From positions 22,307-86,306 of the forward strand of contig JBDRDJ010000028.1 of assembly GCA_043820815.1 (NCBI GenBank): 64,000 nucleotides of DNA. The letters are read 5' to 3'. A program made the position numbers and the translations under genes. How positions within the stretch are numbered: the stretch's first letter is position 1; every line of letters begins with the position of its first letter. Positions 1 to 17,781 of this stretch are shown in pieces. The notes beneath the pieces were generated by a model, which made no database searches, was not told the DNA's origin, and worked only from the letters and a program-made list of their open reading frames with translations. The stretch comes from Candidatus Omnitrophota bacterium (GTDB lineage: Bacteria; Omnitrophota; Gorgyraeia; Duberdicusellales; 4484-171).

Positions 1-299
1 TGAATGACCCGGATTTACTTTTACTGGATGAACCGACCGCATCTTTAGACCCGGCAGTGGCATTCAATATCCGTGCTAATCTTCGTGAATTTGTAGCTAG
101 GCGTGACTGTGGAGTGCTTTGGACTTCACATAATATGTATGAGGTTGAGACGGTGTGTGACCGTGTGCTTTTCCTTTCTCACGGGAAAATCCTTCTTAAA
201 GGTAATCCAAGAACCTTACCGAAAGAATACGGTAAGGCTAATTTGGAGGAACTTTTTATCATGATAGCGCGTGAACCGCTTCCTAAAGAGGCAGGGTAA
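1..299 (+). CDS. ABC transporter ATP-binding protein, C-terminal fragment (5' end outside window)
   Basis: The frame is open from the window edge. Translation starts NDPDLLLLDEPTASLDP (Walker B/D-loop) and contains WTSHNM (H-loop). Stop TAA 297-299 abuts the permease ATG at 300. Confidence 0.85.
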   Translation, partial: NDPDLLLLDEPTASLDPAVAFNIRANLREFVARRDCGVLWTSHNMYEVETVCDRVLFLSHGKILLKGNPRTLPKEYGKANLEELFIMIAREPLPKEAG

Positions 300-1106
300 A
301 TGATTTGTTTCATTCGTGTGTGGGCAATTTTGTTGAGACAGTATTATCTGATACGCGCCAGTTTTTCGCGCATTTTACCCTTATTTATCTGGGTAGCGGT
401 GGATATTGTTCTTTGGGGATTCCTTACGCGTTATCTGAATGCTGTAGCTTCTGTGAGTTTTAATTTTGTGCCGGTCATGCTGGGTGCAATTTTACTTTGG
501 GATTTTTTTATCCGTATCATGCAGGGGGTAACCATGGCTTTCTTTGAAGATGTATGGGCCAGAAACTTCATTAATGTCTTTTCTACACCCATACGTATCA
601 GTGAATATTTAATAGGGCTTGTTTTTTCAAGTATTGCTACCAGCTCTGTAGGAATTGCCGTAATGTTTTTTTTAGCCATTGTGGTTTTTGGCCTACAATT
701 TTTAAGTTATGGAATAGTTATTCTGCCATTTTTATTAGTGCTTTTTATGTTTGGCATAGCTTTAGGTATTGCCGCAAGTGCTCTTGTTCTTAGGCTGGGC
801 CCGGCAGCTGAGTGGTTTATTTGGCCTATACCGGCTATTATTTCACCATTTGCCGGCGTTTTGTATCCGATTGATATTTTGCCTAAATGGATGCAGTTTA
901 TTTCACGCTTTTTGCCGCCGTCTTATGTTTTTAAGTCTCTTAGGGCCGTTGTCTTAGGCGGTCGCGTTTCCTGTACAGCTCTATCGTGGGGCCTGGGGCT
1001 TGCTTTATTATATATTTATCTTGCCTGTTTACTTTTCGTGTATACCTACAACCATGCTGTGCGCAGTGGCCTTATAGCCCGTTACAGCGCAGAAAGCTTA
1101 AGCTGA
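300..1106 (+). CDS. ABC-2 type transporter permease
   Basis: 268 aa with about six hydrophobic helices. It directly abuts the ATPase gene, a typical ABC-2 exporter arrangement. Confidence 0.75.
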   Translation: MICFIRVWAILLRQYYLIRASFSRILPLFIWVAVDIVLWGFLTRYLNAVASVSFNFVPVMLGAILLWDFFIRIMQGVTMAFFEDVWARNFINVFSTPIRISEYLIGLVFSSIATSSVGIAVMFFLAIVVFGLQFLSYGIVILPFLLVLFMFGIALGIAASALVLRLGPAAEWFIWPIPAIISPFAGVLYPIDILPKWMQFISRFLPPSYVFKSLRAVVLGGRVSCTALSWGLGLALLYIYLACLLFVYTYNHAVRSGLIARYSAESLS

Positions 1107-1252
1107 ATTTCTCTCTGAATATAAGAAGCTGCAAAACTAATCTAATACAGGGAGTTTACATTTTCTAAAAATCCCGCCCATTTCTTTGATCAGGATTATT
1201 TTCTTTAGGATATGTGTTAATAAACGGATTCTGTTTATTTTTTAAAAATAGC

Positions 1253-1281
1253 TTGCATATTTTGCATAATTATGGTATATA
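1253..1281 (+). promoter_or_regulatory. sigma-70-type promoter candidate for the RRM protein gene
   Basis: TTGCAT (1253-1258), 17-nt spacer, TGg-TATATA (1273-1281, extended -10). This implies a 5' leader of about 245 nt before ATG 1535. Confidence 0.4.
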
Positions 1282-1534
1282 TGATAGATAACGTATAGTT
1301 TCCTGCTTTAGCCTCACGTCTAATGTTAGTTAACACGTTATAAGATGGGGTTTATTATATTAGCCAGAGGTTAAATTTTGGCATTACTAAACCTTCATAA
1401 AAAGCTCATTGAAAAAAAGGAAGAATCGGCCAGGGGTTAAAAATGGTATGTTGCTAAAAATCCTGGCTAAAGAGGGATGCGGTGTTACGCTGATTGGAAT
1501 TTTCTGTGAGAGCATTCATTAGGAGAAAAAAGAG

Positions 1535-1867
1535 ATGGAAGAACAAAAGAAATTGTACATTGGAAATTTAAGTTATGACACCAGCGAAAGTGACCTGAGA
1601 GGGTTCATCGAAGAGAAAGGGGTAACCCCAACAGAAATAAAAATTATTTCTGATAAATATACTGGAAAATCAAAAGGTTTTGGTTTTGCAGAGTTTGAAA
1701 CTGAGGAACAGGCTCAAGCCGCTATCGATGCTTTAAACGAGCAAGAATTCAGCGGCAGAAAGTTAACCGTAAACAAAGCAAAGAAAATGCAGCCCAGAAA
1801 AGACAACTTTGGCGGCAGTGGCGGTGGCGGCGGACGTAACTCAGGTTATCGTAATAACAGATATTAA
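1535..1867 (+). CDS. RRM-type RNA-binding protein with Gly-rich tail
   Basis: RNP-2 LYIGNL and RNP-1 KGFGFAEF motifs, with a C-terminal GGSGGGGGRNSGYRNNRY tail. RBS AGGAGAAAAAAGAG lies upstream. Confidence 0.85.
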   Translation: MEEQKKLYIGNLSYDTSESDLRGFIEEKGVTPTEIKIISDKYTGKSKGFGFAEFETEEQAQAAIDALNEQEFSGRKLTVNKAKKMQPRKDNFGGSGGGGGRNSGYRNNRY

Positions 1868-1973
1868 TTTAAAGTAGAATGCAATCGCAATCAACGGACG
1901 ATGGTATAAAGGCGAACCATTATTTTTACCATTAGCGTCCCTTTTTCTTTCTTATAGAGGTAATTTTTTTAGT

Positions 1974-2013
1974 CCGCGGGGTAATAATTATTTACCTTGC
2001 GGGGTTTTTGTTT
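1974..2013 (+). terminator. Rho-independent terminator candidate
   Basis: CCGCGGGGTAA (1974-1984) pairs with TTACCTTGCGG (1992-2002), including two G-U pairs. It is followed by GGTTTTTGTTT. Confidence 0.6.
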
Positions 2014-2052
2014 GTAAGGATTTTATTACAATGTATTTAAAGGAGGGCTAAA

Positions 2053-2262
2053 ATGCATACGGGAAAGATTAAGAAGTTAATTCTTGATAAAAGTTTTGGT
2101 TTTATTGCCGATACGGACGGTAATGATGTATTTTTCCACAAAAATAGCCTTGTTGGTATTGATTTCAGTGATTTGGCAGGGGATGAAGAAGTCCAATTTG
2201 ACGTTGAGAAAACCCCCAAAGGGCTTAATGCTACCAACGTAAGCCTTGTAAGCAAATCTTAA
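2053..2262 (+). CDS. cold-shock domain protein (CspA family)
   Basis: 69 aa. GKIKKLILDKSFGFI and VFFH match the RNP1/RNP2-like motifs of CSD proteins. RBS AAGGAGGG lies upstream. Confidence 0.85.
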   Translation: MHTGKIKKLILDKSFGFIADTDGNDVFFHKNSLVGIDFSDLAGDEEVQFDVEKTPKGLNATNVSLVSKS

Positions 2263-2336
2263 TCGGATTTTTTGAAGTCAGCAGCCTTCCGATTAATATA
2301 GCATTAAATTTTCTGGAGAAAATACTTTTGAATATA

Positions 2337-2375
2337 CCCCCTCTGTAATGTAATCCATTGCAGAGGGGTTTTTTA
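2337..2375 (+). terminator. Rho-independent terminator
   Basis: CCCCCTCTG (2337-2345) pairs with CAGAGGGG (2361-2368), followed by TTTTTT. Confidence 0.7.
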
Positions 2376-2495
2376 TTTTAAATAAAGCTAAAAAGAATAT
2401 TAAAATGATAACAATTTTCCAAATAACCGTAACTTTACATATTTGTTTGAACCTTAAGTGTAAAGTTAGGGAACTTTGCTTTTAATCTTTCCCGT

Positions 2496-2993
2496 ATGCC
2501 AGTAAAACAAGAACCAATAAATATCAAGATAAGAATTTCTAAACAGAAGCTGTATCTTTGTAAGAGCAAAAGGATGATTAAGCAATACTCAATATCAACA
2601 TCAAGATACGGCATTGGCAATAAGCTCAACAGCAATAAAACACCATTTGGCCTGCACAGAATTTACAGCAAAATCGGCAAAAATGCGTTGATAGGAGCTA
2701 TTTTTAAAAAGAGGCGCTTCAGGGGAAAATATTCCAAGATATATAAGAAGTCAGCTCCAGATAGAACTGATTTTATTACAACACGCATCATAAGGTTAGA
2801 AGGCTTAGAGAAGGGCATTAATAAGGGTATGGGCATTGATTCTTTAGAGAGGTGTATTTATATTCATGGCACCCCTAATGAAGCTTTAATCGGTAAGCCG
2901 GTATCTTGCGGATGCATAAGATTGAAAAACAAAGATATAATCGAGTTGTTCAATTTAGTAAAAAGAGGCAATTTAGTTAAAATTGAAAGGTAG
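2496..2993 (+). CDS. L,D-transpeptidase catalytic (YkuD) domain protein
   Basis: Active-site motif HGTPNEALIGKPVSCGCIRL (His ... Cys-x-Arg). No signal peptide is seen at the N-terminus. Confidence 0.75.
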   Translation: MPVKQEPINIKIRISKQKLYLCKSKRMIKQYSISTSRYGIGNKLNSNKTPFGLHRIYSKIGKNALIGAIFKKRRFRGKYSKIYKKSAPDRTDFITTRIIRLEGLEKGINKGMGIDSLERCIYIHGTPNEALIGKPVSCGCIRLKNKDIIELFNLVKRGNLVKIER

Positions 2994-3120
2994 ATGTGTA
3001 AGCAACGGGATTGGTTTTCGAATCTGATAATGATTTTTTTAACGGGAACCAGCTGATCATTTCTTCCTGCCGGCCTCAAAATAAACAATTAAAAAGGCGA
3101 TAATGCTGGAGATGTATTCT

Positions 3121-3221
3121 TGGACATTCCCCAAAATTAATATATTGTTTTTCATAACGAGTTTAACCATAAACAGTTAAGAAAAATAATATCTGAATTC
3201 CTGTATTTTGGGGAATGTCCA
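3121..3221. repeat. perfect 17-bp inverted repeat pair, part of a MITE-like repeat-dense region
   Basis: TGGACATTCCCCAAAAT (3121-3137) and its exact reverse complement (3205-3221) are separated by 67 nt. A third copy lies at 23273-23289. Confidence 0.6.
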
Positions 3222-3308
3222 TAATCTCAGTAATCTTTCCCCAATCTCAGTAATCAATTGGGAGTTTCTTAGATTTCAAAAATGGGGAAACTCCCGATGT
3301 ATTCTGTT

Positions 3309-3336
3309 TTACTTTCTACTTTAGATATGGTACAAT
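3309..3336 (+). promoter_or_regulatory. sigma-70-type promoter candidate for the sigma-54 activator gene
   Basis: TTACTT, 16-nt spacer, TGg-TACAAT (extended -10, 3328-3336). Confidence 0.4.
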
Positions 3337-3433
3337 ATTTTTTCTTTTTGGCTTAGGCAGCAAGAGAGCGATGAGCCACAGTCTTATTAGAGATGTCCGA
3401 TTTAAACCCTAACGCATTCCCCGCAATAAAGTT

Positions 3434-4813
3434 ATGGTAAGCGTCAATAAACAACCTGTTATTTTAGTTGTGGATGATGACCCTTCAGTTTTAGAGGCAT
3501 TCAAGGTTATTTTAGACGAGCAATTTAAGATTTTGACTGCTCAGAGCGGAAAGAGCGCATTGGATACGGTTTCTAAAGAACCGGTTGATCTGGTTTTCTT
3601 AGACATTGCCATGCCCGATATAGACGGCATGAAGATTCTGCGTACGATGAAGGAATTGGATGCTAATTTATCAATAATTATCGCAACCGCAACCGACAGC
3701 GCGAAAATGGCTGTTGAGGCAATGCGGCTGGGAGCCTGTAATTATATCACAAAGCCTTTTGACCCTGATGAAGTGGTAGCTGTGGCCCAGAAGGCCCTGG
3801 AACGGGAAGAACTGCTGAAAGAAGTTGCTTATTTTCGGTCTCAAAGAGAAGAAATAAAGTTTGATAATATTGTGGGCAAAAGCAAAAGCATGGAAGAGAT
3901 ATACGGCATTATCGAAAAAGTCGGCAAAAACGATACCACCATTATTATTACCGGCGAAAGCGGAACAGGAAAAGAATTAATCGCCCAAGCAATACACTGG
4001 AACGGCCTGAGGCAGCAGAAACCGTTTATTCCCGTTAATTGCGCAAGTATTCCTGAAAACTTGCTTGAAAGCGAATTTTTCGGCTACGAAAAAGGCGCTT
4101 TTACCGATGCCGCTTCTCAGAAATTAGGCATGCTGGAACTGGCTGACCAAGGCACGCTGTTTATGGATGAGATCTCAAGCCTCAAGTTAGATATGCAGGC
4201 AAAGCTTCTGCGCGCTTTGGAAGAGAAGGAAATTAGAAGGGTTGGCGGAACCAAGATAGTTAAGGTAGATGTACGCATTATCTGCGCTGCTAACGTTGAC
4301 TTAAAAGCTTTGGCACAGGAAGGAAAGTTTCGCTATGACCTATATTATCGCTTGAATGTCGTGCCTATACATTTGCCGTCACTTAGAGAACGCAGGGAGG
4401 ATATCCCTTTGCTGGTCGCGCATTTCTTAAGAAACTTTAACAAGGCGTTCAGAAAAGAGATAGAAGGGTTTACGGATGATTCTTTAGAGTACTTAATTAA
4501 TTATGATTGGCCGGGTAATATCCGGGAGCTTAAGAATGTTATTGAGCGTTTGGTTGCCTTAAAGGATAAAGGAGTTATTACATCTAAGGAACTGCCTTTT
4601 GATATTTTTATAAAAAATAAGCTGATAAAGAGCTTCCGGGCCGAAGGCGGGCTCAAAGAAGCACGCCGGGATTTCGAGAAACAATACATAGAAGCTGTGT
4701 TAGAAAGAGTCGGCGGCAATCAAATTAAAGCGTCTAAGATATTGAGTATTCACCGTAATGCACTTTTTAACAAGATAAAGAGTTTAGGGATAGGAGGGCG
4801 AAGATGCGGCTAA
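3434..4813 (+). CDS. sigma-54-dependent response regulator (NtrC family enhancer-binding protein)
   Basis: N-terminal receiver (VVDDDPS ... FLDIAMPDIDG). AAA+ domain with GESGTGKE Walker A and the GAFTDA sigma-54 contact motif. C-terminal Fis-type HTH (QIKASKILSIHRNALFNKI). Confidence 0.9.
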   Translation: MVSVNKQPVILVVDDDPSVLEAFKVILDEQFKILTAQSGKSALDTVSKEPVDLVFLDIAMPDIDGMKILRTMKELDANLSIIIATATDSAKMAVEAMRLGACNYITKPFDPDEVVAVAQKALEREELLKEVAYFRSQREEIKFDNIVGKSKSMEEIYGIIEKVGKNDTTIIITGESGTGKELIAQAIHWNGLRQQKPFIPVNCASIPENLLESEFFGYEKGAFTDAASQKLGMLELADQGTLFMDEISSLKLDMQAKLLRALEEKEIRRVGGTKIVKVDVRIICAANVDLKALAQEGKFRYDLYYRLNVVPIHLPSLRERREDIPLLVAHFLRNFNKAFRKEIEGFTDDSLEYLINYDWPGNIRELKNVIERLVALKDKGVITSKELPFDIFIKNKLIKSFRAEGGLKEARRDFEKQYIEAVLERVGGNQIKASKILSIHRNALFNKIKSLGIGGRRCG

Positions 4814-6651
4814 TCAGATTTATATCTTTTTTTGCATTGTTAGTCACTATAGCCGTTGGCGCAGAGGCGGCGGCTGGAGAAACCAGCACAATTGAATTAC
4901 AGCCTATAGTTATAACGCCAAGAAGAACACCTGTTGGGCTAAGCGCAACAACAGAGAACGTAATCGTAATCAATGAAGAAGAAATAAGCCGGCTGCCTGC
5001 AAGGGACTTAGGCGAAGTTTTGGGGTATACCGCAGGTGTTGATATTGATCCTCGCCAGGGATTTGGCAGGGCAACATCAATCAGTATCCAGGGCTCTGAC
5101 TCCCGCCATGTAAGGGTAATGATTGACGGCATACCTTTAAATAACCAGGCTTCCGGCGAGGTTGACCCTTCCCGCTACTCAATTGAGAACGCAAAAAGGA
5201 TAGAAGTTATTAAAGGGTCAGCTTCGAGTATTTGGGGTTCAAGCTTAGGCGGAGTGATTAATATTATTACCAAGGATACGGGAGATACTTTAATTCCCAA
5301 GGGCAATTACACAACCTCTTTTGCAGAATTCGGCACTAAGAAAGACACTCTTGACTTGTCGGGTAAATTAGGGCAATTGGGTTATTATGTTTTCGGGAGC
5401 TTGATGGAATCAGGGGGCAAGGATTCAAGGGATGATGTTATTGAGAAAAAAACATTCGGCAAGCTATCATACGATTTTAAGGATGCCGGCAAATTAACCG
5501 CTTCTTTCGGTTATAACAAAGCAGATGTAAACAGCGGTGTTTGGCCTGATGGAACCTGGTGGGGCCAGCCTTACCGCATACATTACGGCAAGGCCGGCTG
5601 GGAGGCTGAATTAGGCGCAACAGCCGTGAGCGCTGAATTAAAACATTCCCGTCAGGATATTATTACAGAAATTTACCTTGATGCCGCTGATCAAGAGCCG
5701 TTTTCTACGATTAAATCCAAAGATGCGCTTTATCAGCTAAGTTTAAATTCAACCACTCATATTGGAAAAGATGACCTATTAGTTTTAGGGTTCGATTCCG
5801 ATTGGGATAATTTAAAATCTACTTATCTTACCAAAGCAAAGGGTCTAAATGTACAGGCTCCTTATGCTAATTATGCGTTGAAATTAGAGCCATGGGATTT
5901 TAATTTTGGATTACGTTATGACCATACCAGTGAATTTGGAGATGAACTTAGCCCTTCTTTGGGTGCGATATACCATGTTAAAAGCATTCCCGATACTCTT
6001 GTGCGGGCAGGAGTTTCCCGGGCATTTAATGCTCCGCCTCTTCTTTGGAAGTACTATGACTTCAGCCTAAGCGGCTTGACTATTAACCCTGATATTACAC
6101 CTGAACGTGCCCGGGTGTATGAGCTTGGATTGGAAAGTATGCCGCTACCTGAATTATGGCTTAAGCTTTCTTTATACAGAGCGGATGTGTCTGATGCTAT
6201 CAGCAATGCCCAAAGCGGGAGCGGCCAGTGGTATAAAAAGAACTTTGAGAAGTTCCGGAGGCAAGGGGCAGAGTTACAGTTTAATGCCGGCCTTTTTGGC
6301 GGGTTAAGTTTATTTGGAGGCGGCGCTTTTAACGATATTGAAGATAGAGCTACAAGACAAACCGTAGAAGGCGGAGGTAAACCCCGCTATAGTTATGATT
6401 TAGGGCTGTCATACAACAGTGAAAACGGGCTGAATGTGTTAGTTCGCGGTTATTATAATTACTGGAACGAACCGGCATCAAGCGAGCCTAATGATAGAAA
6501 AATGCTTTGTGACATAAAGATTTCTCAAAAATTCAAAAACGCAGATTTTTTCTTAAATGTACACAATTTTACTAATAGCAAATACTGGAGAGATTATTAC
6601 TTTCCTGTTCCCCAGAGGTATTTTGAGGGAGGAGTCACTTTTAAATGGTAA
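4804..6651 (+). CDS. TonB-dependent outer-membrane receptor
   Basis: Signal peptide, TonB-box-like IELQPIVITP, plug-domain motifs (IEVIKGSASSIWGS), and a beta-barrel ending in an aromatic residue (VTFKW). The start overlaps the activator stop by 10 nt. Confidence 0.85.
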   Translation: MRLIRFISFFALLVTIAVGAEAAAGETSTIELQPIVITPRRTPVGLSATTENVIVINEEEISRLPARDLGEVLGYTAGVDIDPRQGFGRATSISIQGSDSRHVRVMIDGIPLNNQASGEVDPSRYSIENAKRIEVIKGSASSIWGSSLGGVINIITKDTGDTLIPKGNYTTSFAEFGTKKDTLDLSGKLGQLGYYVFGSLMESGGKDSRDDVIEKKTFGKLSYDFKDAGKLTASFGYNKADVNSGVWPDGTWWGQPYRIHYGKAGWEAELGATAVSAELKHSRQDIITEIYLDAADQEPFSTIKSKDALYQLSLNSTTHIGKDDLLVLGFDSDWDNLKSTYLTKAKGLNVQAPYANYALKLEPWDFNFGLRYDHTSEFGDELSPSLGAIYHVKSIPDTLVRAGVSRAFNAPPLLWKYYDFSLSGLTINPDITPERARVYELGLESMPLPELWLKLSLYRADVSDAISNAQSGSGQWYKKNFEKFRRQGAELQFNAGLFGGLSLFGGGAFNDIEDRATRQTVEGGGKPRYSYDLGLSYNSENGLNVLVRGYYNYWNEPASSEPNDRKMLCDIKISQKFKNADFFLNVHNFTNSKYWRDYYFPVPQRYFEGGVTFKW

Positions 6652-6690
6652 AAAGAGTGCACAATATAATGAATTGCACTCTTTTGTGTG
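6651..6690 (+). terminator. terminator hairpin after the TonB-dependent receptor
   Basis: AAAAGAGTGCA (6651-6661) pairs with TGCACTCTTTT (6675-6685), an 11-bp stem with a 13-nt loop. Confidence 0.55.
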
Positions 6691-6854
6691 CATAAAATCC
6701 GCCGCATAAAACCATCTGCGCAAGTTGTTTCGCAAATTGAAAAATAATAAATTAGTTTATTCATGCATCCGCATATCAATGATTGTCTTTGTTTTTACAG
6801 CCCGCCGCTTTAAAAGTTTCCCTAAAAAATTCCAAAATGCAAAAATGTAATTAA

Positions 6855-6870
6855 TGGCACGATACTTGCT
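6855..6870 (+). promoter_or_regulatory. sigma-54 (-24/-12) promoter
   Basis: TGGCACGATACTTGCT matches the consensus TGGCACG-N4-TTGCW at every defined position. It lies 20 nt upstream of the signal-peptide ATG at 6890. Confidence 0.6.
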
Positions 6871-6889
6871 TAATCAAAGATGTAACCGG

Positions 6890-8491
6890 ATGAACAAGAG
6901 AACGCTATTTATTTTATTAACCATTTTGCTTTTAGTTATGTTACTCGTTGGTATTAAAAAACGTTCGCATGTGCTCACTTCTTCTAATTTGTATGGCGGT
7001 ACTCTTGTATGGGGAGCGGTCAATAAGCCTACAATAATAAACCCGATTTTAACCACTCAGAGCATTTCTATGGGGGTTATTAATTTAATATTTAACGGCT
7101 TGGTTAGAATTAATTCAAAAGGGGAAATAGAGCCTGATTTGGCACAGTCTTGGGATATTTCCCAGGACGGCCTTGTGTATACCTTTCATTTAAGGGAAGG
7201 CATAAAGTTTCACGACGGCAGAGAGTGTACTGCTTATGATGTAAAATTTACTTATGATAAAATCGTTGATCCGGATATTAATTCGCCCTTTAAATCTTTT
7301 TACCAATTAGTCAGGGAATTTAAGGCGGTTGATAAATTAACTTTTCAGGCAGCCTTAAGAAAACCTTTGTTTTCTTTTATTTACAGGTTTACCAGAGAGA
7401 TAGTTCCTAAGCATATCCTGGAAAATAAGGATTTGAGCAGATGTGCATTTAATTATCATCCTATAGGAACAGGGCCGTTTAAGTTTAAAGAGTGGAAACA
7501 AGACGGCCGGATTGTCCTTGATTATAATCCTGATTATTACGAGGGAAGGCCGTATTTAGACAGGGTTATCGCTAAAACTTATACTGATTCCCGCAATCTC
7601 TGGGCGGCTCTTATGCGCGGCGAAGTGGATTTTGTGCTTTATATAGGGCGGCAAGATTATGAAATTGTAAGGGATGACCCGGCATTTAAAGCTTATAACT
7701 ATTTTTTTGATTTCTATTATACCTTAATTTACAACCTTAACGATCCCGTGCTGGCCGATAAAAGGGTAAGATACGCACTTGCTTATGGCATAGACAGAAA
7801 GGAGTTGATTGAGAAAGTGGCTTTCGGCTATGGTTTAGAATGTAACGGCCCTTTTTATCCGGATTCTTTAGGTTTTAATCCCGATGTTGAGCCTTTTAAA
7901 TATAGCCCCCAGCGCTCACGCCAGCTATTAGCCCAGGCAGGCTGGGAGGATACTGACGGTGATGGTATTTTGGGAAAAGAAGCAAAAGAGTTGGAGTTGA
8001 GCATTTTGGTTGACGAGAGAAATGACATCTACAAAAATATAATAATGGTTTTAAGGCAGCAGCTTCAGAGAATTGGAGTAAAGACACAAGTACAGCTATA
8101 CAACGACGACAGTGAACTTACCGATAAGTTTCTTGCCCAAAACAAGCCGCAGGCGCATTTAAAAATGCTTATGGCAGGGATGGACCCTGATCAGCAGGCG
8201 CCGCACGATTGGTGTTCCGAAATGCCCCGTGGCCTCGGTAAATTGTGGATATATAGAAACGATGAAGTAAACAGGCTTTTTATGACAGGGAAAGTCAGTC
8301 GTGATAAAGAACAACGGGATTTGATTTATCGAAGAATTCACCGCCTTATTTATGAAGACCAGCCGGCATGTTTTTTATATTTCCCATTTATTTTTCACGC
8401 AGTTTCCAATAAGTTTGAAAATACAGATGATTTCTTTACGGTGAATATGCCTTTTTATACAATAAAAGATTGGCGCCTTAAATCTAATTAA
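6890..8491 (+). CDS. periplasmic solute-binding protein, family 5 (OppA/NikA/DppA-like)
   Basis: The N-terminus MNKRTLFILLTILLLVMLLV is a signal or anchor sequence. Family-5 hallmarks follow (GGTLVWG ... PDLAQSWDISQDGLVYTFHLREGIKFHDG). The track start at 6854 falls inside the sigma-54 promoter, so I moved the start to the in-frame ATG at 6890. Confidence 0.8.
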   Translation: MNKRTLFILLTILLLVMLLVGIKKRSHVLTSSNLYGGTLVWGAVNKPTIINPILTTQSISMGVINLIFNGLVRINSKGEIEPDLAQSWDISQDGLVYTFHLREGIKFHDGRECTAYDVKFTYDKIVDPDINSPFKSFYQLVREFKAVDKLTFQAALRKPLFSFIYRFTREIVPKHILENKDLSRCAFNYHPIGTGPFKFKEWKQDGRIVLDYNPDYYEGRPYLDRVIAKTYTDSRNLWAALMRGEVDFVLYIGRQDYEIVRDDPAFKAYNYFFDFYYTLIYNLNDPVLADKRVRYALAYGIDRKELIEKVAFGYGLECNGPFYPDSLGFNPDVEPFKYSPQRSRQLLAQAGWEDTDGDGILGKEAKELELSILVDERNDIYKNIIMVLRQQLQRIGVKTQVQLYNDDSELTDKFLAQNKPQAHLKMLMAGMDPDQQAPHDWCSEMPRGLGKLWIYRNDEVNRLFMTGKVSRDKEQRDLIYRRIHRLIYEDQPACFLYFPFIFHAVSNKFENTDDFFTVNMPFYTIKDWRLKSN

Positions 8492-8509
8492 AGGAAGGAG
8501 GTGAGAAAG

Positions 8510-8608
8510 ATGAAAGTTATTAAAAAAGGCTCGGATAAGATTTTTAACGGTGTAGATCCCAAAGGCTGCTGCTGGCCGGCAGGGACTATCGGTGCACGCC
8601 CCTACTAA
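8510..8608 (+). CDS. 32-aa candidate RiPP precursor peptide (MKVIKKGSDKIFNGVDPKGCCWPAGTIGARPY)
   Basis: ATG 8510 is preceded by GGAGGTGA (8497-8504) with a 5-nt spacer, and TAA is at 8606-8608. It sits immediately upstream of the rSAM/SPASM gene. It is too short for the ORF track. Confidence 0.6.
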   Translation: MKVIKKGSDKIFNGVDPKGCCWPAGTIGARPY

Positions 8609-8762
8609 TGGTTGAGGGAGGGTAATTAAAATATCCTGAAAAAGAGATGTTTTGCAGTAAGTTTATGGGCGGCCGACCAGAACTTGCTGCAACCATAGTT
8701 GTAAAAGCCACCGATTTATCAACATCAGATAACGGATTGGATCATATTGTTAGGAGCGGGAA

Positions 8763-10127
8763 ATGAAACTGTCGAAATTCAATTTATTGGTTAAAGATTA
8801 TCCTGTCAAAGGCGAATACCTTTTGTTTAATACACGCACTCAGGCGTTGATTACCGTAACTAATAAATTTAAGGAGTTTTTAGACAGCCTTGAAGCCTCA
8901 AACGTTACGGTTTACGGTATGGCGATAAAAGAAAAAATAAATGCATTGAAAGAAAACGGAATTGTAGTTGAGGACGAAAAGGAAGACCAGGATAAATTAA
9001 GTGATTTTTTTCGGCAGCTAAAATATGAATCAAATGTCTTGCCTTTTGAGGCGACAATTCTAACCACTTACAATTGTAATTTTAAATGCGTGTATTGTTT
9101 TGAAGAATCGGTCAGGGATAATATATTCTTAGATATCAAGACCAGCGAGGCAATAATAAACTGGCTAAAGAGAAGAATTCAGCAGAGAGGCTATAAACGG
9201 ATTTATCTGGTTTATTACGGAGGAGAGCCCTTGCTTAATGTCAAGCCGGTTTACGATATATCCTGGCATATGCAGGCATGGGCTGATAAGAATGGTGTTG
9301 AATTCGGTTTCGGTATAATTACCAACGGAAGCCTTGTAAATCCGGAGTTAATTGATAAATTGTTAACCGTAGGCTTAAAAGAAATCCGTGTCAGTTTAGA
9401 CGGCGACAGAAATGCACACAATAAGAAAAGGCCGTTTTCTGATGGACGGCCTACCTTTGACCTTATTGTTAATAATATAAAAAGAGTTATGGGAAAAGTC
9501 AATGTGGGAATTTCGGGGAATTTTGACCGCAAGAACTACAAGAGTATCTACAAACTTTTAGATTATTTAGAAGAACAGGGAATCTTGCGTAAATTACACA
9601 GGATTAATTTTGCACCCTTGACTCCCCGGTTCGGGCCAAAGAATAATCCCGGAGCAGTTGAATTAAAAGAATGCTTTTCTTTTGTGGGAAAAGAGGGATT
9701 ATTTAAGGAAGTGACAGCTATTACAAAAGAGCTAATGCGGCGCAGGCTGACATTGACTACCGGTTTATCGGTTAATATCTGCCCTTTGATTATGCAGGAC
9801 GGAGGTATTACCATTGACCCCGGGGGCGTAATTTACAAATGTAACGCTCTGGTAGGTTATCGGGAATTTTCCATCGGTAATGTCGCCGATGAGGGGTTTA
9901 ACGAAAAGTTTAGTGAATTCTTAAATATTGACGCCTGGAATAAATGCCCACGTGATTGCCCTTATATTCCCATGTGCCAGGGGGGATGCAGATTTTTTTC
10001 CTATTTAGAGAATAAGAATTTTTGTGCGTTATCCTGTAAAAGGGATTATTTTGATAAGATTACTCCCGAATTGATTAAGCTGGAGTACGATAAACTTACA
10101 AACGACTATCAAAGCAGTTTGCAATGA
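8763..10127 (+). CDS. radical SAM/SPASM-domain peptide-modifying enzyme with N-terminal RRE-like domain
   Basis: CNFKCVYC is the CX3CX2C radical SAM motif. The C-terminal SPASM signature is present (CPLIMQDGGITIDPGGVIYKC ... CPRDCPYIPMCQGGC ... C). About 95 aa precede the rSAM core, typical of a PqqD-like recognition element. Confidence 0.9.
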   Translation: MKLSKFNLLVKDYPVKGEYLLFNTRTQALITVTNKFKEFLDSLEASNVTVYGMAIKEKINALKENGIVVEDEKEDQDKLSDFFRQLKYESNVLPFEATILTTYNCNFKCVYCFEESVRDNIFLDIKTSEAIINWLKRRIQQRGYKRIYLVYYGGEPLLNVKPVYDISWHMQAWADKNGVEFGFGIITNGSLVNPELIDKLLTVGLKEIRVSLDGDRNAHNKKRPFSDGRPTFDLIVNNIKRVMGKVNVGISGNFDRKNYKSIYKLLDYLEEQGILRKLHRINFAPLTPRFGPKNNPGAVELKECFSFVGKEGLFKEVTAITKELMRRRLTLTTGLSVNICPLIMQDGGITIDPGGVIYKCNALVGYREFSIGNVADEGFNEKFSEFLNIDAWNKCPRDCPYIPMCQGGCRFFSYLENKNFCALSCKRDYFDKITPELIKLEYDKLTNDYQSSLQ

Positions 10128-11875
10128 AGAGAGCAAGAGAGCTTTTATCTATTTTACGGCCGCATAGGAAAAAGATCATTTTCGCCGGCATATCGATTCT
10201 TGCTGTCAACTTAACGGGGTTGGCTTTTCCCTGGGGTATTAAGATTATCATTGATGAAGTTCTGGTTAAAAAAGATTTCTTTTTGCTAAATAGCTTGGCA
10301 GGGGCACTTGTTCTGATTTTCTTGATACAGTTCTATTGCGGATTTATGCGCGAATACTTAGTTTCTTCTGTGGGTGAAAATGTAGTTTGTGAGTTGCGTA
10401 ACAGGCTCTACTGGCACATAGAGAGATTATCGGTGAAATATATAGAGGATACGCCTATAGGTAAGATTATATCGGGAGTTATCGGCGATGTTGAGAGTAT
10501 ACGGAATTTCCTGTTTGGCGGGCTTATAGATTTTATTTACTCTTTCCTTAACGTATTTTTCGTCCTTATCATCTTGCTGTTTCTGGATTGGAAGCTAACC
10601 CTGGTTTCTTTAATATTTTTGCCCGCGTTCGGGCTCACCTTCTTTAAGCTTACCCCCCGCCTGCAGAAGAAGTTTGGGGCAGTGAGGGAAAAATACGCGG
10701 AGTTAACCGCACACTTAAACGAAGTATGTATTGGTATCCGCGTTGTTTGCGGTTTTGGCAAAGAAAGATACGAGGCAGACAGGTTTAATTCTACTCAGAG
10801 CAAAATTCTCAAAAACTCTATGGCAGGCCACAGGCTGACGATAGGGTTATGGATGGGGTCAGAGTTAGTCAGTTCTTTAGGGCTTGTTACCATTATATGG
10901 TTTGGAACCCGGGCCGTATTTTCCGGGCGTATAACCCCGGGGACATTGATGGCGTTTTATTCCTATACAGGAATGCTTTTTTTCCCCGTAATTAAGATGA
11001 CGATTATTAACAATTTTTATCAAGAAGCTGCTGTTGCAATGGAGCGGATTGATAGAATTTTAGCCGAAGAGCCGGCAGTAAAAGAATCTCTAAATCCCGT
11101 TAAGATTAATAAGGTAAAAGGAAATGTAATATTTGACGGGGTAAGTTTCAGCTACGATGGAAAAAGGGAAGTTCTCTCTGGAATTGACATCGGCGTAAAA
11201 GCATCCCAAACCATAGCCCTAGTGGGTAAAAGCGGCGCCGGTAAAACCACCATGATAAATTTGCTACTTAGATTTTACGATCCCGATAAAGGAGGAATTT
11301 TTATTGACGGATACAACATCTGCGATTTGGATTTGAATTCGTACCGTTCTAGTATTGCTATGGTTCTTCAGGATGATTACCTCTTTAACTTAAGCGTTAG
11401 AGAGAACATTCTCTATGGCAAGCCGCAGGCTTCTTTTGATGAAGTTGTCAGAGCCGCCTGTTTAGCAAACGCTCATCAGTTTATTACTGAATTAGCCGAT
11501 GGTTACGATACAGAGATAGGCGAAGGAGGGGTTAAACTTTCTTTCGGGCAAAGACAAAGGATTTCTATCTCCCGGGCAATAATAAGAGACCCGGCCATTT
11601 TAATTCTGGATGAGGCGACATCGTGCGTAGATTCAGAAACTGAACGCCTTATCATCGAAGGAGCTTATAAAAATGTGATATGCGGCCGTACCACGTTCAT
11701 AATTGCCCATAGGCTTTCAGCAATAACGTATGCTGATAGAATTATTTTTATCGAAGGCGGCAGAATAATTGAGGAGGGTGCTCACCAGCACCTTTTAGAT
11801 AAAAAAGGCCGATATTGGAAAATGTGGACAGAACAAACCCGATATAGCTTTACATCGAAGGTGCCGGCTGCATAA
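10124..11875 (+). CDS. ABC exporter, fused permease/ATPase (MsbA/type I exporter fold)
   Basis: A six-helix TMD is followed by an NBD with GKSGAGKTT (Walker A), LSFGQRQR (signature) and ILILDEATS (Walker B). An ATGA overlap with the rSAM stop suggests translational coupling. There is no N-terminal C39 peptidase domain. Confidence 0.9.
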   Translation: MKRARELLSILRPHRKKIIFAGISILAVNLTGLAFPWGIKIIIDEVLVKKDFFLLNSLAGALVLIFLIQFYCGFMREYLVSSVGENVVCELRNRLYWHIERLSVKYIEDTPIGKIISGVIGDVESIRNFLFGGLIDFIYSFLNVFFVLIILLFLDWKLTLVSLIFLPAFGLTFFKLTPRLQKKFGAVREKYAELTAHLNEVCIGIRVVCGFGKERYEADRFNSTQSKILKNSMAGHRLTIGLWMGSELVSSLGLVTIIWFGTRAVFSGRITPGTLMAFYSYTGMLFFPVIKMTIINNFYQEAAVAMERIDRILAEEPAVKESLNPVKINKVKGNVIFDGVSFSYDGKREVLSGIDIGVKASQTIALVGKSGAGKTTMINLLLRFYDPDKGGIFIDGYNICDLDLNSYRSSIAMVLQDDYLFNLSVRENILYGKPQASFDEVVRAACLANAHQFITELADGYDTEIGEGGVKLSFGQRQRISISRAIIRDPAILILDEATSCVDSETERLIIEGAYKNVICGRTTFIIAHRLSAITYADRIIFIEGGRIIEEGAHQHLLDKKGRYWKMWTEQTRYSFTSKVPAA

Positions 11876-11897
11876 CTTTTTTAATGGAGGAATCGCC

Positions 11898-12428
11898 ATG
11901 GTATTTAAGAATCTGAACATTTTAGTTATTGATGACAGTATTTCAGTAAGGATTTCAATGGCCGAAGAATTAGCGATGCTCGGCTATCAGGTGTATACGG
12001 CTGCAAGCAGGGAAGAAACAGAGAAAATTCTCGAAAATCATATCGTTGATATTGTCTTTCTTGATTTAAAGCTGCCCGGCGTTACAGGGCTTGAATATCT
12101 GGAGCAAATTAGGCGCAGAGAAGAAAACATTGTAGTAATTATAATGACTGCTTATGAATCCATGCCAACAGCTGTTGAGGCTATTGAAAAAGGCGCTCAT
12201 GAGTATATCATAAAACCAATAAGCCCGGGGCATCTTGAACTGGTGATGAAACAGGCGTTGATGCGCTTTTGCCTTGAGCAGGAAAGAGATATGGCTAACG
12301 ATAAGAGGATGGACGTAATAAAGAGGTTTAACAGTGACCTGAAAGACGCGGAAGCACTTAAGCAGGCACTAAAAGCCCAGGTGAACAGCCTTCTTGGGGA
12401 GTTAGGCAGGCCGCCCAAATATAAATGA
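11898..12428 (+). CDS. response regulator, receiver domain with short helical C-terminal tail
   Basis: ILVIDDS ... FLDLKLPGVTG ... YIIKP receiver motifs. RBS GGAGG lies upstream, 22 nt after the ABC exporter stop. Confidence 0.85.
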   Translation: MVFKNLNILVIDDSISVRISMAEELAMLGYQVYTAASREETEKILENHIVDIVFLDLKLPGVTGLEYLEQIRRREENIVVIIMTAYESMPTAVEAIEKGAHEYIIKPISPGHLELVMKQALMRFCLEQERDMANDKRMDVIKRFNSDLKDAEALKQALKAQVNSLLGELGRPPKYK

Positions 12429-12496
12429 CACGATGAGCCTTCCTGCGGAATAATACCGGCGGCCAAAAATAATGGATTAAACAATAAATTATTATT

Positions 12497-14290
12497 ATGA
12501 CGGAAAGGTCTAAAAGGAAATTCAAACGGTTTTTACTAAATTTATTTTACCACAGGCTGTGGGTGCAGATTGCGGCAATTCTTCTTGCGTTAGTTACTGT
12601 TCCGGTGATTACCTTAGGGACGTTACTCATCAAAACATCAGAAGAGGCAGTGCGCAGTTCAGTGCTTAACAATCATAAGGAGATAGTAAAGAGAGCCTCG
12701 GGAGAGATTGAGCTCTTTGCCAGAGGAGCAAAAAGTGTTTTGTATGCTGCGGCAGCGATTATGGGAGAAGTTTCTTCTGCTGAATGGAAACAGGAGACAG
12801 TGCTGGTAGAATTAGTTTTGAACCAGCCGGTTTTTATAAGAGTTTCTTCTGTGGATTTATCCGGTAAAGAAATAGCCAGTTCTGAACTGGGAAGAGAGTC
12901 AAAACGCTATTATTCTAATGAGGTGCTTGAAGAGATTCAGAAGGGAAAAGTTTATATTTCTCAGGTTAAATTCCTCGATAATAATAATCCTTATGTAACC
13001 ATGAGTGCCCCGGTAAAGAAAGACGGCCAAATCGCAGGGGGGATAATTGCTGATGTAAACTTGCGGGGGATATGGGATATTGTGGATAATATCCAGATAG
13101 GCCATACCGGAAAAGCTTTTTTAGTAACAGATAAGGGCGTATTAATTGCCCACCATGATAAGAAACGGGTTCTTAAAAAAGAGAACTTTAGCAGTTATAA
13201 AGATGTCCAATTGGTTTTATCTTCAGAAACCGGCGCAATTGAATTAGAAGATGCATCGAAAGAAAGATGGATTAGTTCTTACGCTCCTATTTCTGATTTA
13301 AGCTGGGCTATTGTATTAAGGCAGAAGCAGGACGAAGCTTATTTATTTTCTAAGGTGATGAGGATGCAGGCGTGGGTAATTATAGGCATAAGTGAATTGC
13401 TGGCGGTTGTTGTTAGTATTTTTATGGCGCGGTTTTTGGTAAGGCCGGTTAAAACTTTAGCCTCGAGAATGAAGAGTGTAGCCGCCGGCGACTTAGACCA
13501 TAAAATCGGCTCAAGAAGGCGAGATGAAATCGGGGAATTAATAAGGTCTTTTAACGATATGATTGAGAAGTTAAAAAGAGCCAGTGCGCGCGAGCGGCTC
13601 TCTGCAATCGGAGAAGCAGCTGCCTGGATAGCACATGAGCTTAAGAACTCTTTAGTTTCCATAAAGACTTTCATCCAGTTGTTTCCTCGAAAATATAAAG
13701 AAAAGAATTTTGTGGATAAGTTTAGCAAGCTGATCCCTGAAGAAATTAAGCGCTGGGAGAATATGCTTAAAGAGCTGTCTGACTTTTCATACCATTCTGA
13801 CCTGCGCAGGCAAAACGTTGATGTGAAGGATTTATTAGATAACTTATTGCAGATAATGGGGGGAAGGCTTCTTGAGAAACGAATAAGCGTTGATTACAAC
13901 ACCGAGGGTGATAATTTTATTATATGGGCTGATAGTGAAAGGTTAAAGCAGGTCTTTATGAATTTAATTATTAATGCCGTAAACGCGATGGCGGACGGCG
14001 GTGCGCTCAGGATATCTTTACGCTCAATAGAAGGCAGCGGCCAGCTTGCAGACAGCTCTATAGAAGCAAGAGTCCAGGATACAGGATGCGGGATACCCAT
14101 GGAAGAACTGGATAAAATATTTGAACCGTTCTATACTGCGAATAAAGGCGGGATGGGCTTAGGGCTTTCAATAAGCCAAAGGATTGTTGAACAGCACGGC
14201 GGGAAGATTAAGGCAGAAAGTAAACTAAATACCGGTTCTGTCTTTACCGTAATATTGCCAAAAGATCCGTTATTGTTAAGGGCTGTGTAA
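12497..14290 (+). CDS. sensor histidine kinase with large extracytoplasmic (Cache-like) domain, HAMP, HisKA, HATPase_c
   Basis: Two TM segments flank a loop of about 270 aa. HAMP region (RPVKTLASRMKSVAAGDLD), H-box HELKNSL, N-box NLIINAVNA, G-boxes DTGCGI and GGMGLGL. Confidence 0.85.
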   Translation: MTERSKRKFKRFLLNLFYHRLWVQIAAILLALVTVPVITLGTLLIKTSEEAVRSSVLNNHKEIVKRASGEIELFARGAKSVLYAAAAIMGEVSSAEWKQETVLVELVLNQPVFIRVSSVDLSGKEIASSELGRESKRYYSNEVLEEIQKGKVYISQVKFLDNNNPYVTMSAPVKKDGQIAGGIIADVNLRGIWDIVDNIQIGHTGKAFLVTDKGVLIAHHDKKRVLKKENFSSYKDVQLVLSSETGAIELEDASKERWISSYAPISDLSWAIVLRQKQDEAYLFSKVMRMQAWVIIGISELLAVVVSIFMARFLVRPVKTLASRMKSVAAGDLDHKIGSRRRDEIGELIRSFNDMIEKLKRASARERLSAIGEAAAWIAHELKNSLVSIKTFIQLFPRKYKEKNFVDKFSKLIPEEIKRWENMLKELSDFSYHSDLRRQNVDVKDLLDNLLQIMGGRLLEKRISVDYNTEGDNFIIWADSERLKQVFMNLIINAVNAMADGGALRISLRSIEGSGQLADSSIEARVQDTGCGIPMEELDKIFEPFYTANKGGMGLGLSISQRIVEQHGGKIKAESKLNTGSVFTVILPKDPLLLRAV

Positions 14291-14309
14291 TTCATAAAGC
14301 GGGGGATGT

Positions 14310-14957
14310 ATGAGCAAGAAAATTCTGATAGTTGATGACCACAGCATTATGCGTGAGGGCCTGCGTGCTTTGCTTGAAGAGGTACAGGATTTCAAAGTAA
14401 TCGGAGAGGCGGAAAACGGGCGTGTGGCATTGCGAATGGTACAGGAGTTTTTACCTGATGTAGTGATTATTGACATTGCAATGCCTCATTTAAACGGAAT
14501 CGAAGCAACACGCCAGATTATTTCCAAGTTTCCCGCTGTTAAGGTCATTATGCTTTCAATGCAGTCCGGCAGGCAGTTTGTGGAAGAGGCGCTTAAGGCC
14601 GGCGCTTCAGGTTATCTCTTGAAAGATAACATTTTTAATGAGTTAATCCTTGCCCTTCATACGGTAACTGAAGGCAGAATATATCTATGTCCGGAAATAG
14701 CCAAAGTGGTAGTTAAAAACCTTGTGCACCGGCTAAAAAACGATGTCCCTTCACAAATTAATATACTTACACCGCGGGAACGCGAAGTGCTTCAGCTCTT
14801 AGCAGAAGGTAAATCGACTAAACAGATTGCCCGCTGTCTGGGTGTGAGCATAAAGACCATTGAAACCCACCGTCAACAGGTTATGCGTAAATTAGACATC
14901 TATAGTATAGCCGAGCTTACAAAATTCGCTATCCGTGAGGGCATAACATCTCTTTGA
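14310..14957 (+). CDS. NarL/LuxR-family response regulator
   Basis: Receiver (ILIVDDH ... IIDIAMPHLNG) plus a C-terminal LuxR HTH (LTPREREVLQLLAEGKSTKQIARCLGVSIKTIETHR). Confidence 0.9.
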   Translation: MSKKILIVDDHSIMREGLRALLEEVQDFKVIGEAENGRVALRMVQEFLPDVVIIDIAMPHLNGIEATRQIISKFPAVKVIMLSMQSGRQFVEEALKAGASGYLLKDNIFNELILALHTVTEGRIYLCPEIAKVVVKNLVHRLKNDVPSQINILTPREREVLQLLAEGKSTKQIARCLGVSIKTIETHRQQVMRKLDIYSIAELTKFAIREGITSL

Positions 14958-15091
14958 AGTTTTCTTAGAAATTCTAAAAACCTTTCTCTTTGCAAATCAG
15001 GTATTTATAACCATAGTATCAGGGTTTCCCCGATTGTTTTTTATGTTGACATGGGATATCATAACGTAAATCTTAGCAAGGACATTAGATT

Positions 15092-16294: not shown

Positions 16295-16355
16295 GTGAGT
16301 GTGTCTAAACTTAAATAATTTTGACAATACGCAACATTACACCGGGGGAGATAAT

Positions 16356-17741: not shown

Positions 17742-17781
17742 TTATTCTTAAACAATACAGGCGCAACATAAAAAAGCTTGC

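Follow-up and report, generated by a model that had tools for sequence, protein, structure and literature searches.

Peptide signals are held to be a specialty of Gram-positive bacteria, partly since peptides larger than ~600 Da cannot passively cross an outer membrane. Methanobactin operons encode a TonB-dependent receptor (MbnT), a family-5 binding protein that has no permease in the operon (MbnE), and MbnB, which is a DUF692/MNIO protein. Genome mining for such operons is the subject of PMC3621798. In the PahS/PahP/PahK system, an outer-membrane receptor feeds a periplasmic binding protein, which signals to a kinase (PMC10570129). In this study, we analyzed a locus in a 64,000-nt stretch of a Candidatus Omnitrophota metagenome-assembled genome (the whole stretch is called the window here). 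We found that a small precursor peptide, a radical SAM (rSAM) maturase, an ATP-binding cassette (ABC) transporter, a TonB-dependent receptor, and an orphan family-5 solute-binding protein (SBP5) are encoded by one conserved cassette of the type that produces peptides synthesized on the ribosome and modified after translation (RiPPs). A membrane histidine kinase is a core member of this cassette, as much as the maturase is. Our preferred reading, which we hold tentatively, is that the cassette could be a circuit for making, exporting, recapturing, and sensing a cross-linked peptide, which would serve as an autoinducing strain-specific signal for quorum or kin recognition.

The genes of the window were taken from a mechanical list of open reading frames (ORFs) with their Pfam matches. 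The cassette genes are all on the + strand, and the features of the region are as follows.

3434..4813, + strand: NtrC-type sigma-54-dependent response regulator (REC, AAA+, and HTH_8 domains by Pfam); overlaps the receptor start by 10 nt
4804..6651, + strand: TonB-dependent outer-membrane receptor of 615 aa (Pfam Plug and barrel)
6658..6693, + strand: TGCAC-N12-TGCAC-N7-TGTGCAT array, a putative upstream site for the activator, ~160-200 nt ahead of the promoter
6855..6870, + strand: predicted sigma-54 (-24/-12) promoter, TGGCACGATACTTGCT, zero mismatches, 20 nt before the SBP5 ATG
6890..8491, + strand: orphan SBP5 (Pfam SBP_bac_5, E = 5e-86)
8510..8608, + strand: 32-aa precursor peptide (ORF with a ribosome-binding site; family of 45 distinct orthologues)
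8652..8692, + strand: RNA hairpin 3' of the precursor, conserved in related loci
8763..10127, + strand: radical SAM/SPASM peptide maturase (Pfam Radical_SAM, E = 1.6e-15)
10124..11875, + strand: MsbA-type ABC half-transporter (Pfam ABC_membrane and ABC_tran); shares its first 4 nt with the end of the rSAM gene
11898..12428, + strand: stand-alone receiver-domain protein (Pfam)
12497..14290, + strand: membrane histidine kinase with periplasmic dCache_1, HAMP, HisKA, and HATPase domains (Pfam)
14310..14957, + strand: LuxR-type response regulator (Pfam), 19 nt after the kinase

A preliminary description of this DNA had listed the five genes from the receptor to the ABC transporter. All five are present at the coordinates given there, including the SBP5 start at 6890, which is also the start of the NCBI record MFH1772499. 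That description ended the cassette at 11875 and overlooked the co-conserved kinase and the response regulators, and with them the sigma-54 promoter, the NtrC-type activator, the hairpin after the precursor, and an allelic hypervariability that centers on SBP5 and the peptide. Because of the kinase, the promoter and its activator, the hairpin, and the hypervariability, the balance tilts toward the second of the two options that it had offered, a peptide signal with the binding protein as a sensor.

The comparison covered 55 loci with rSAM orthologues at 48-71% identity, 4 of them genomic and 51 metagenomic, almost all from Omnitrophota. A scan of a genome collection with the single protein gave the 4 true orthologues, and 11 loci with distant rSAM families (L005-L015) were left out. 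Window proteins were placed in the related loci by tblastn, and co-occurrence was counted only where the contig reaches far enough to be informative. Together with the rSAM gene, 33/33 informative loci have SBP5, 28/28 the dCache-HAMP histidine kinase, 17/17 the TonB-dependent receptor, and 39/41 the ABC transporter. Exactly one precursor is present in each of the 48 loci that cover the region upstream of the rSAM gene, and an orthologue of the NtrC-type sigma-54 regulator stands directly upstream of the receptor in 15 of 23 informative loci. The preliminary description had proposed to check whether the receptor and the binding protein are co-conserved with the peptide, rSAM, and ABC genes. 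They clearly are: SBP5 and the receptor both reach 100% co-occurrence, and the ABC transporter reaches 95%. The usual gene order is [regulator]-receptor-SBP5-precursor-rSAM-ABC-kinase-[regulator]. The receptor follows the kinase instead of preceding SBP5 in five loci (L003, L020, L024, L030, and L046), where it is still within the cassette. At the far edge of the family (54-58% identity, reached in two further look-ups), the same gene set is followed by an AraC-type response regulator.

All-versus-all clustering of every ORF in the loci revealed no further conserved gene. No permease, protease, membrane-fusion factor, outer-membrane factor, or TonB/ExbBD component was among the genes conserved across the 55 loci, which upholds the earlier statement that the locus has no protease. 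The ABC gene is absent from L023 and L024, in which the kinase begins ~100 nt after the rSAM gene (e.g., L024:11320-11428). Both loci retain the precursor, the rSAM gene, and the kinase, and L024 additionally shows SBP5 and the receptor. Positions 1-125 of L023 are unrelated to the 3' end of SBP5 that L024, elsewhere ~99% identical, has at this place, and every frame of them has stops; this segment is either an assembly artifact at the contig end or the mark of a strain in which SBP5 was replaced or lost.

The precursor encoded in the window is MKVIKKGSDKIFNGVDPKGCCWPAGTIGARPY, with the ribosome-binding site GGAAGGAGG 7 nt ahead of it; a leader that begins MKVIKKGSD is followed by the core CCWPAGTIGARPY. 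The precursor family was traced within the fetched loci, where whole precursors are only 28-37 aa long and 45 distinct sequences share the consensus MEIIRKGSD…CC[FYW]PxG[TS]xxxRxx. M1, G7, the adjacent Cys pair (CC), Pro at CC+3, Gly at CC+5, and Arg at CC+10 are invariant among the 45. The residue at CC+2 is always aromatic (F in 32, Y in 9, and W in 4), and that at CC+6 is Thr or Ser in 40/45, whereas CC+4, CC+7 to CC+9, and a tail of 2-3 residues vary freely. The Cys pair apart, conservation extends to none of the His, Asp, Glu, or Cys residues. The N-terminal MEIIRKGSD, which is nearly invariant, is presumably the leader recognition element. The motif CC[FYW]P.G....R occurs in a single copy in the whole window and once per locus in 48/48 related loci, in every one of them 60-290 nt upstream of the rSAM gene. 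These counts, with the conserved leader and scaffold residues, put the 32-aa ORF well outside what chance would give and bear out its earlier listing as a gene. NCBI has not annotated the precursor, as only one accession number lies between those of SBP5 (…499) and the ABC transporter (…501), and no NCBIfam model matched it, even at E = 10. Because standard annotation misses the precursor, the family is invisible to routine pipelines.

A strong hairpin follows the precursor stop codon by 8-30 nt in 42 of 44 loci (z < -2 versus shuffles). In the window it has the form TTGCAG...CTGG-GCGGCCGA-CCAG...CTGCAA, and across loci its base and apex are conserved and its middle stem is variable. Compensatory changes are seen in 7 of the 10 consensus pairs, and a loop motif is common to 23/44 loci. 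The conservation of the apex sequence suggests a specific binding partner. Most copies of the hairpin lack a U-tract. A hairpin placed behind a precursor gene usually increases precursor transcript relative to enzyme transcript, and this one probably stabilizes or partly terminates a short transcript. A search of window positions 1-20000 against Rfam found no riboswitch or other known RNA, and the hairpin itself was unmatched even at E = 1. The apex contains the palindrome CGGCCG.

The maturase carries the rSAM motif CX3CX2C (C105, C109, and C112) and a seven-Cys SPASM motif for two auxiliary clusters, of the pattern C-x9-15-G-x4-C ... CxxxCx5Cx3C ... C (C340, C360, C395, C399, C405, C409, and C425), and all of these residues, along with G355, are invariant in 30 orthologues. 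Its best NCBIfam match, with 282.5 bits where the cut-off is 400, is to TIGR04280, the geopeptide radical SAM maturase. CefB, TIGR04463, FlmE/OhkG, Clo7bot, and PapB follow, also below threshold, so that the protein reaches no named family's cut-off. Among solved structures, CteB, the SCIFF thioether synthase, is the nearest in sequence. In an AlphaFold2 model (predicted local distance difference test score, 85.7), residues 7-88 form three strands and then three helices, resembling a RiPP recognition element (RRE). This model matches CteB over its full length, including its RRE, and then TigE and anSME, with the SPASM region of CteB and anSME covered. The RRE is assigned by fold only, as there is no Pfam PqqD match. 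The modeled structure thus indicates an RRE-rSAM-SPASM enzyme with a CteB-like architecture, and its sequence scores place it as a new family of such maturases. By homology, with CteB, PapB, and CefB as the nearest relatives, the most likely chemistry would be thioether formation from the two invariant Cys residues, as in sactipeptides, in which the Cys sulfur is joined to the alpha carbon of the acceptor, or ranthipeptides, in which it is joined to the beta or gamma carbon.

The MsbA-type half-transporter presumably carries the modified peptide outward through the inner membrane. Its sequence begins at the transmembrane domain, and it therefore has no C39 peptidase domain, as the preliminary description had stated. 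Just downstream of the cassette, L029 (13243-14793) and L024 (15449-16930) encode a weakly Alginate_exp-like outer-membrane barrel protein, which is found in few loci and is not conserved in the family; it could be a candidate for an outward channel for the peptide.

The receptor has a signal peptide followed by a TonB-box-like LQPIVITP, a plug at residues 48-151, and a barrel at 206-588. It is of BtuB size, without an N-terminal signaling extension, and BtuB is also its closest solved structure; its scores are far under all NCBIfam cut-offs. ExbB and ExbD are encoded elsewhere in the window, 33 kb downstream. The genes at 41437-45723 encode an 848-aa multi-TPR protein, ExbB, ExbD, and a 190-aa protein without a Pfam match. 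The last of these may be a divergent TonB, and the set is likely to be the energy-transducing system for the cassette receptor.

The closest solved relative of SBP5 is the Bacillus subtilis nonapeptide binder AppA (1XOC, E = 2e-74), followed by NikZ and then by other peptide, nickel, and opine binders. A longer ORF that begins at 6854 is absent from the protein collection, and its 12-codon extension (6854-6889) is not real, as the ATG at 6854 falls inside the sigma-54 promoter. The true start at 6890 leaves a very short 5' untranslated region. SBP5 has an N-terminal hydrophobic segment and no lipobox, and is therefore likely anchored to the inner membrane. It occurs, in the window and in the related loci, without the Opp/Dpp/Nik importer set of two BPD_transp_1 permeases and two ATPases. 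The earlier remark that no Opp-type permease lies near SBP5 can be extended to the whole window and to all related loci. As polytopic membrane proteins, the window encodes one permease each of the ABC-2 and ArsP types and glycosyltransferases of the PMT_2 type, with no BPD_transp_1 among them. Four consecutive ORFs of 310-350 aa at 46610-50699 were considered as a possible OppBCDF set and rejected, their Pfam matches being NadA, MnmA, a weakly Peptidase_Mx-like protein, and an ATP-grasp ligase. SBP5 is our proposed specificity receptor for the mature peptide.

The element TGGCACGATACTTGCT is the sole zero-mismatch -24/-12 match in the window, and in 18 related loci the element, with one mismatch or none, immediately precedes SBP5. 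The promoter and the NtrC-type regulator go together, the promoter being present in 14 of 15 loci with the regulator versus 0 of 8 without it (Fisher p = 2e-5). At -220 to -100 of the promoter, 9 of the 18 promoter-bearing loci have a strict TGCAC-N8-16-[TCG]GCAC motif, with degenerate copies in the rest and a background of 0.02 per kb in the loci. The TGCAC array is plausibly an enhancer site bound by the NtrC-type regulator. It begins directly after the receptor stop codon, and its first two repeats can fold into a hairpin followed by TTTT; the array might double as the terminator of the receptor gene. From its position, the promoter is predicted to drive SBP5-precursor-rSAM-ABC-(receiver)-kinase. 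The kinase gene is thus part of the operon whose activation it presumably brings about. Should the NtrC-type activator be under the control of the kinase, as we infer, then the operon is positively autoregulated. The likely cognate regulator of the kinase is the LuxR-type protein encoded at 14310..14957; the regulator in this position is of the LuxR type in L001, L004, L017, and L053 and an AraC-type REC-HTH protein in most other loci. The regulators before the receptor also vary, being NtrC-type, HTH_17-REC, or receiver-only. The receiver at 11898-12428 is specific to the window and has no orthologue at this position in the related loci, where nothing separates the ABC gene from the kinase gene.

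Close strains differ most within one part of the cassette, a hot-spot made up of SBP5 (the most divergent gene), the peptide core, the N terminus of the maturase, and portions of the receptor; the ABC transporter, the kinase, and the regulator are nearly identical. Synonymous divergence (dS) in three strain pairs was as follows, with per-gene values used for L053/L016.

L064/L038: regulator 0.03, kinase 0.09, ABC 0.19, receptor 0.17, rSAM 0.77 (residues 1-95) and 0.32 (rest), SBP5 0.89
L062/L040: regulator 0.34, kinase 0.27, ABC 0.36, receptor 0.71, rSAM 0.52, SBP5 0.78
L053/L016: regulator 0.16, kinase 0.55, ABC 0.89, receptor 1.57, rSAM 1.27, SBP5 1.31

The dS of SBP5 (0.78-1.31) thus exceeds that of the regulator (0.03-0.34) by up to 30-fold. 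In L064/L038, nucleotide identity is 99-100% in the regulator and 96-100% in the kinase and falls to 76-85% over a stretch that runs from SBP5 through the precursor to ~450 nt into the rSAM gene, with two more such patches in the receptor. L044 and L029 have a breakpoint early in the ABC gene, with 66-80% identity upstream and 94-99% downstream. L023 and L024, which were aligned with gaps, are ~99% identical from the region of the precursor ribosome-binding site through the rSAM gene and the kinase; they differ at 2 of 13 core residues versus 8 of 1,039 residues of the maturase and kinase (p = 0.005). None of the strain pairs differs in the leader; the changes in the peptide are at variable core positions. 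The ratio of nonsynonymous to synonymous divergence (dN/dS) is ~0.1 throughout, which argues against relaxed constraint as the cause. The pattern looks like old functional alleles in a young background, introduced by recombinational exchange or kept by balancing selection. Neither the sensor half of the kinase nor the transmembrane half of the ABC transporter is hypervariable (in L064/L038, the kinase dS of 0.09 compares with 0.89 for SBP5), which fits SBP5 as the reader of peptide identity. We read this as a sign that SBP5, and partly the receptor, recognize the variable face of the mature peptide and that the kinase and the exporter do not. The signal is found only between close strains; over 21 loci, the correlation of peptide-core distances with protein distances is weak for all proteins (r = 0.10-0.26) and is uninformative. 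Taken with the co-occurrence and the shared promoter, the joint hot-spot rules out a chance adjacency of two unrelated modules.

The order of events that we propose for the circuit is as follows. The 32-aa precursor would be produced in excess, its transcript being stabilized or partly terminated by the hairpin, and its MEIIRKGSD leader would dock on the RRE-like domain of the maturase. The maturase would then place one or two intramolecular cross-links, most likely Cys thioethers to judge from its relatives, on CC[FYW]PxG[TS]xxxR, and the ABC half-transporter would carry the product over the inner membrane. The TonB-dependent receptor of the cassette would bring the peptide back into the periplasm; a dedicated receptor would be needed because a peptide of 1.5-3 kDa is too large for porins. 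There, the membrane-anchored, AppA-like SBP5 would bind it, and since no permease accompanies SBP5, the protein would act as a co-receptor. The dCache kinase could read the loaded SBP5 in the manner of LuxP/LuxQ or PahP/PahK; it is by analogy with these that we infer a contact between SBP5 and the kinase. The kinase would phosphorylate the LuxR- or AraC-type regulator encoded downstream and the NtrC-type regulator encoded upstream, and the latter would fire the sigma-54 promoter before SBP5-precursor-rSAM-ABC-kinase, closing a positive feedback loop. Specificity would reside in the variable positions of the peptide core, in SBP5, and in loops of the receptor, exchanged between strains or kept as old alleles. 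Still more tentatively, we suggest that this may be the first peptide pheromone of a two-membrane cell: a RiPP re-imported through a TonB-dependent receptor, read by SBP5, and relayed to a kinase, with exchangeable pherotype alleles that could serve kin or strain recognition in uncultivated and possibly host-dependent Omnitrophota.

At the level of genes, the gene content, the promoter logic, and the specificity hot-spot fit an autoinducing locus. Several points weigh against a signaling circuit of this kind. The cassette is known here from its sequence alone, and function prediction within the rSAM/SPASM superfamily is unreliable. The hot-spot comes from four or five strain pairs on metagenome contigs, and it is proof of specific recapture and not of signaling, since pyoverdine/FpvA types share the same allele pattern. 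Binding proteins of family 5 and outer-membrane proteins generally outpace cytoplasmic ones, which does not explain the elevated dS. The dCache domains usually bind small ligands themselves, and PfeS/PfeR offers the precedent of a kinase that senses a re-imported siderophore. The genes conserved across the loci account neither for an outward route through the outer membrane nor for removal of the leader, and the lineage of L023 and L024 has no ABC gene.

The most serious rival to the signaling reading, one that we consider less likely than a signal and that was the leading idea of the preliminary description, is a metallophore or other shared-goods shuttle. In this case, the peptide would capture Ni, Co, Cu, Zn, or another scarce nutrient, be re-imported by the receptor, and be handed to SBP5. 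The inner-membrane step would fall to a permease encoded elsewhere or to the exporter-fold ABC protein acting as an importer, like YbtPQ and IrtAB. The kinase would sense the loaded compound, as PfeS/PfeR does, and allelic diversity would bar piracy, as with pyoverdine/FpvA. The specificity hot-spot is equally compatible with such avoidance of cheaters. After AppA, the best matches of SBP5 bind nickel or metallophores (NikA, Opp5A/NikA, CntA, and NikZ), and the receptor is closest to BtuB-type transporters. The preliminary description had matched the locus to methanobactin operons. The parts list does run parallel, down to a counterpart of MbnT and one of MbnE without a permease in the operon, but the locus has no MbnB or MbnC, no sigma/anti-sigma pair, and no signaling extension on the receptor, and no Fur-, NikR-, Zur-, or CsoR-type regulator is among the genes conserved across the cassette loci. 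The invariant adjacent Cys pair of the precursor would suit a metal ligand, yet no set of metal ligands is conserved beyond it, the other invariant residues (the aromatic residue, Pro, Gly, and Arg) not being metal ligands, and the nearest enzymes (CteB, PapB, and CefB) use up Cys thiols in thioethers. Nor do the controls resemble those of metal uptake: the predicted promoter is a sigma-54 promoter with positive feedback and is not metal repressed, and window positions 1-20000 contain no riboswitch or other Rfam element. A shuttle also has to contend with the lack of a permease in any of the 55 loci.

We consider it improbable that the product is an autoinduced antimicrobial of the nisin type, with a bacteriocin- or microcin-like logic, for which the kinase and regulator would supply the autoinduction, SBP5 would provide self-immunity by sequestration, the receptor would be the entry gate on conspecific targets, and toxin and immunity would diversify together. 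The arrangement of precursor, enzyme, ABC transporter, two-component system, and membrane-bound binding protein does resemble lantibiotic clusters, bacteriocin maturases are among the close relatives of the rSAM enzyme, and the peptide and SBP5 co-diversify like toxin-immunity pairs. However, a producer would gain nothing by keeping, and co-varying, an importer of its own toxin. The scaffold is invariant over a family of phylum-level breadth, although turnover is usual in bacteriocins. Each locus has just one precursor, and SBP5 comes from a family of uptake and sensing proteins. Also missing are a LanFEG-type transporter for immunity, a C39 protease, and a leader protease. An uncharacterized rSAM cluster of Parabacteroides, which has a two-component system and a TonB-dependent receptor, counts in favor of an antimicrobial and is also the nearest mention of such a cassette that we found (PMC9389541). 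Finally, a redox cofactor or prosthetic-group precursor with salvage, in which the CC-aromatic segment would be excised and then scavenged by the receptor and SBP5 on the analogy of PQQ (PqqA/PqqE with the receptor PqqU) or mycofactocin, is very improbable: both of these are made by rSAM/SPASM enzymes, PqqU is among the weak matches of the receptor, and the core scaffold is invariant, but a universal cofactor needs neither strain-specific receptor alleles nor variable core residues, and neither PqqB/C/D/F-like or MftD/E/F-like tailoring genes nor a partner enzyme is conserved in the loci.

Whether the product is a signal or a private nutrient shuttle, the cassette defines a conserved RiPP family with the scaffold CC[FYW]PxG[TS]xxxR and brings a candidate receptor of its own. 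Few orphan RiPPs do so, and it makes the function directly testable. The cassette occurs widely in Omnitrophota, whose biology as a phylum is almost unexplored by experiment, and its allelic diversity at the strain level points to social or competitive interactions among these nanobacteria. If the signaling reading is true, the cassette would show how diderm bacteria can solve the problem of peptide-signal entry.

Two other regions of the window drew our attention. The adjacent, overlapping genes at 48667-50699 encode the weakly Peptidase_Mx-like protein and an ATP-grasp enzyme of the D-Ala-D-Ala-ligase type, which may be a separate small pair for peptide ligation or modification. At 56642-59743, an EF-G-like protein of 1,033 aa has its GTPase domain from residue ~343 onward, preceded by ~340 N-terminal residues without a Pfam match.

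The preliminary description knew of no RiPP class with this combination, and we likewise found no description of the cassette in the literature searched or in curated family libraries. Its biosynthetic half belongs to a known kind, the RRE-rSAM-SPASM RiPPs, in which it forms a new family, and the coupling of this half to a receptor, SBP5, and a kinase, with pherotype-like alleles, is apparently undescribed. The enzymes CteB (SCIFF), PapB (ranthipeptide), and TIGR04280 (geopeptide) share with the cassette an N-terminal RRE, a CX3CX2C core, a seven-Cys SPASM domain, and an adjacent short Cys-containing precursor. Unlike in those families, the maturase here scores below the cut-offs, the precursor matches no NCBIfam model, and the core has two adjacent Cys residues only. 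To our knowledge, a TonB-dependent receptor, an orphan SBP5, and a dCache kinase have not been reported alongside any of these families. Methanobactin operons resemble the cassette in that they encode, next to a small precursor and an exporter, both a TonB-dependent receptor and a family-5 binding protein that lacks an operon permease, and in a logic of re-uptake of a self-made peptide. They differ in their MbnB/MbnC maturase and MATE exporter, where the cassette has an rSAM/SPASM enzyme and an ABC transporter, and in their extracytoplasmic sigma and anti-sigma factors and the signaling extension of the receptor, where the cassette has a kinase, a sigma-54 promoter, and no extension. The precursors have no sequence similarity, and no metal-regulator gene is conserved in the cassette loci.

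On the sensing side, pyoverdine/FpvA and PfeS/PfeR are comparable in that a compound and its TonB-dependent receptor co-diversify and a two-component system senses the re-imported compound. Their compounds are nonribosomal siderophores under the control of Fur and have an inner-membrane route for uptake or release, in all of which the cassette is unlike them. LuxP/LuxQ and PahS/PahP/PahK have in common with the proposed circuit a periplasmic binding protein that informs a membrane kinase without a transporter. Their ligands are autoinducer-2 and aromatic hydrocarbons, their binding proteins belong to other families, and no biosynthetic genes accompany them, whereas the ligand of the cassette would be a self-made RiPP. 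The comQXPA locus of Bacillus and the staphylococcal agrBDCA locus gather a modified signal, its maturase, a kinase, and a regulator in one autoinduced locus, as is proposed for the cassette. As in the cassette, a hypervariable block spans the peptide, the peptide-handling part of the maturase, and the receptor, while the signaling output is conserved. Both of these systems are Gram positive, and their variable receptor is the sensor of the kinase itself; in the Omnitrophota cassette, the kinase is conserved, and, in keeping with the needs of a diderm, it is a separate binding protein and an outer-membrane importer that vary.

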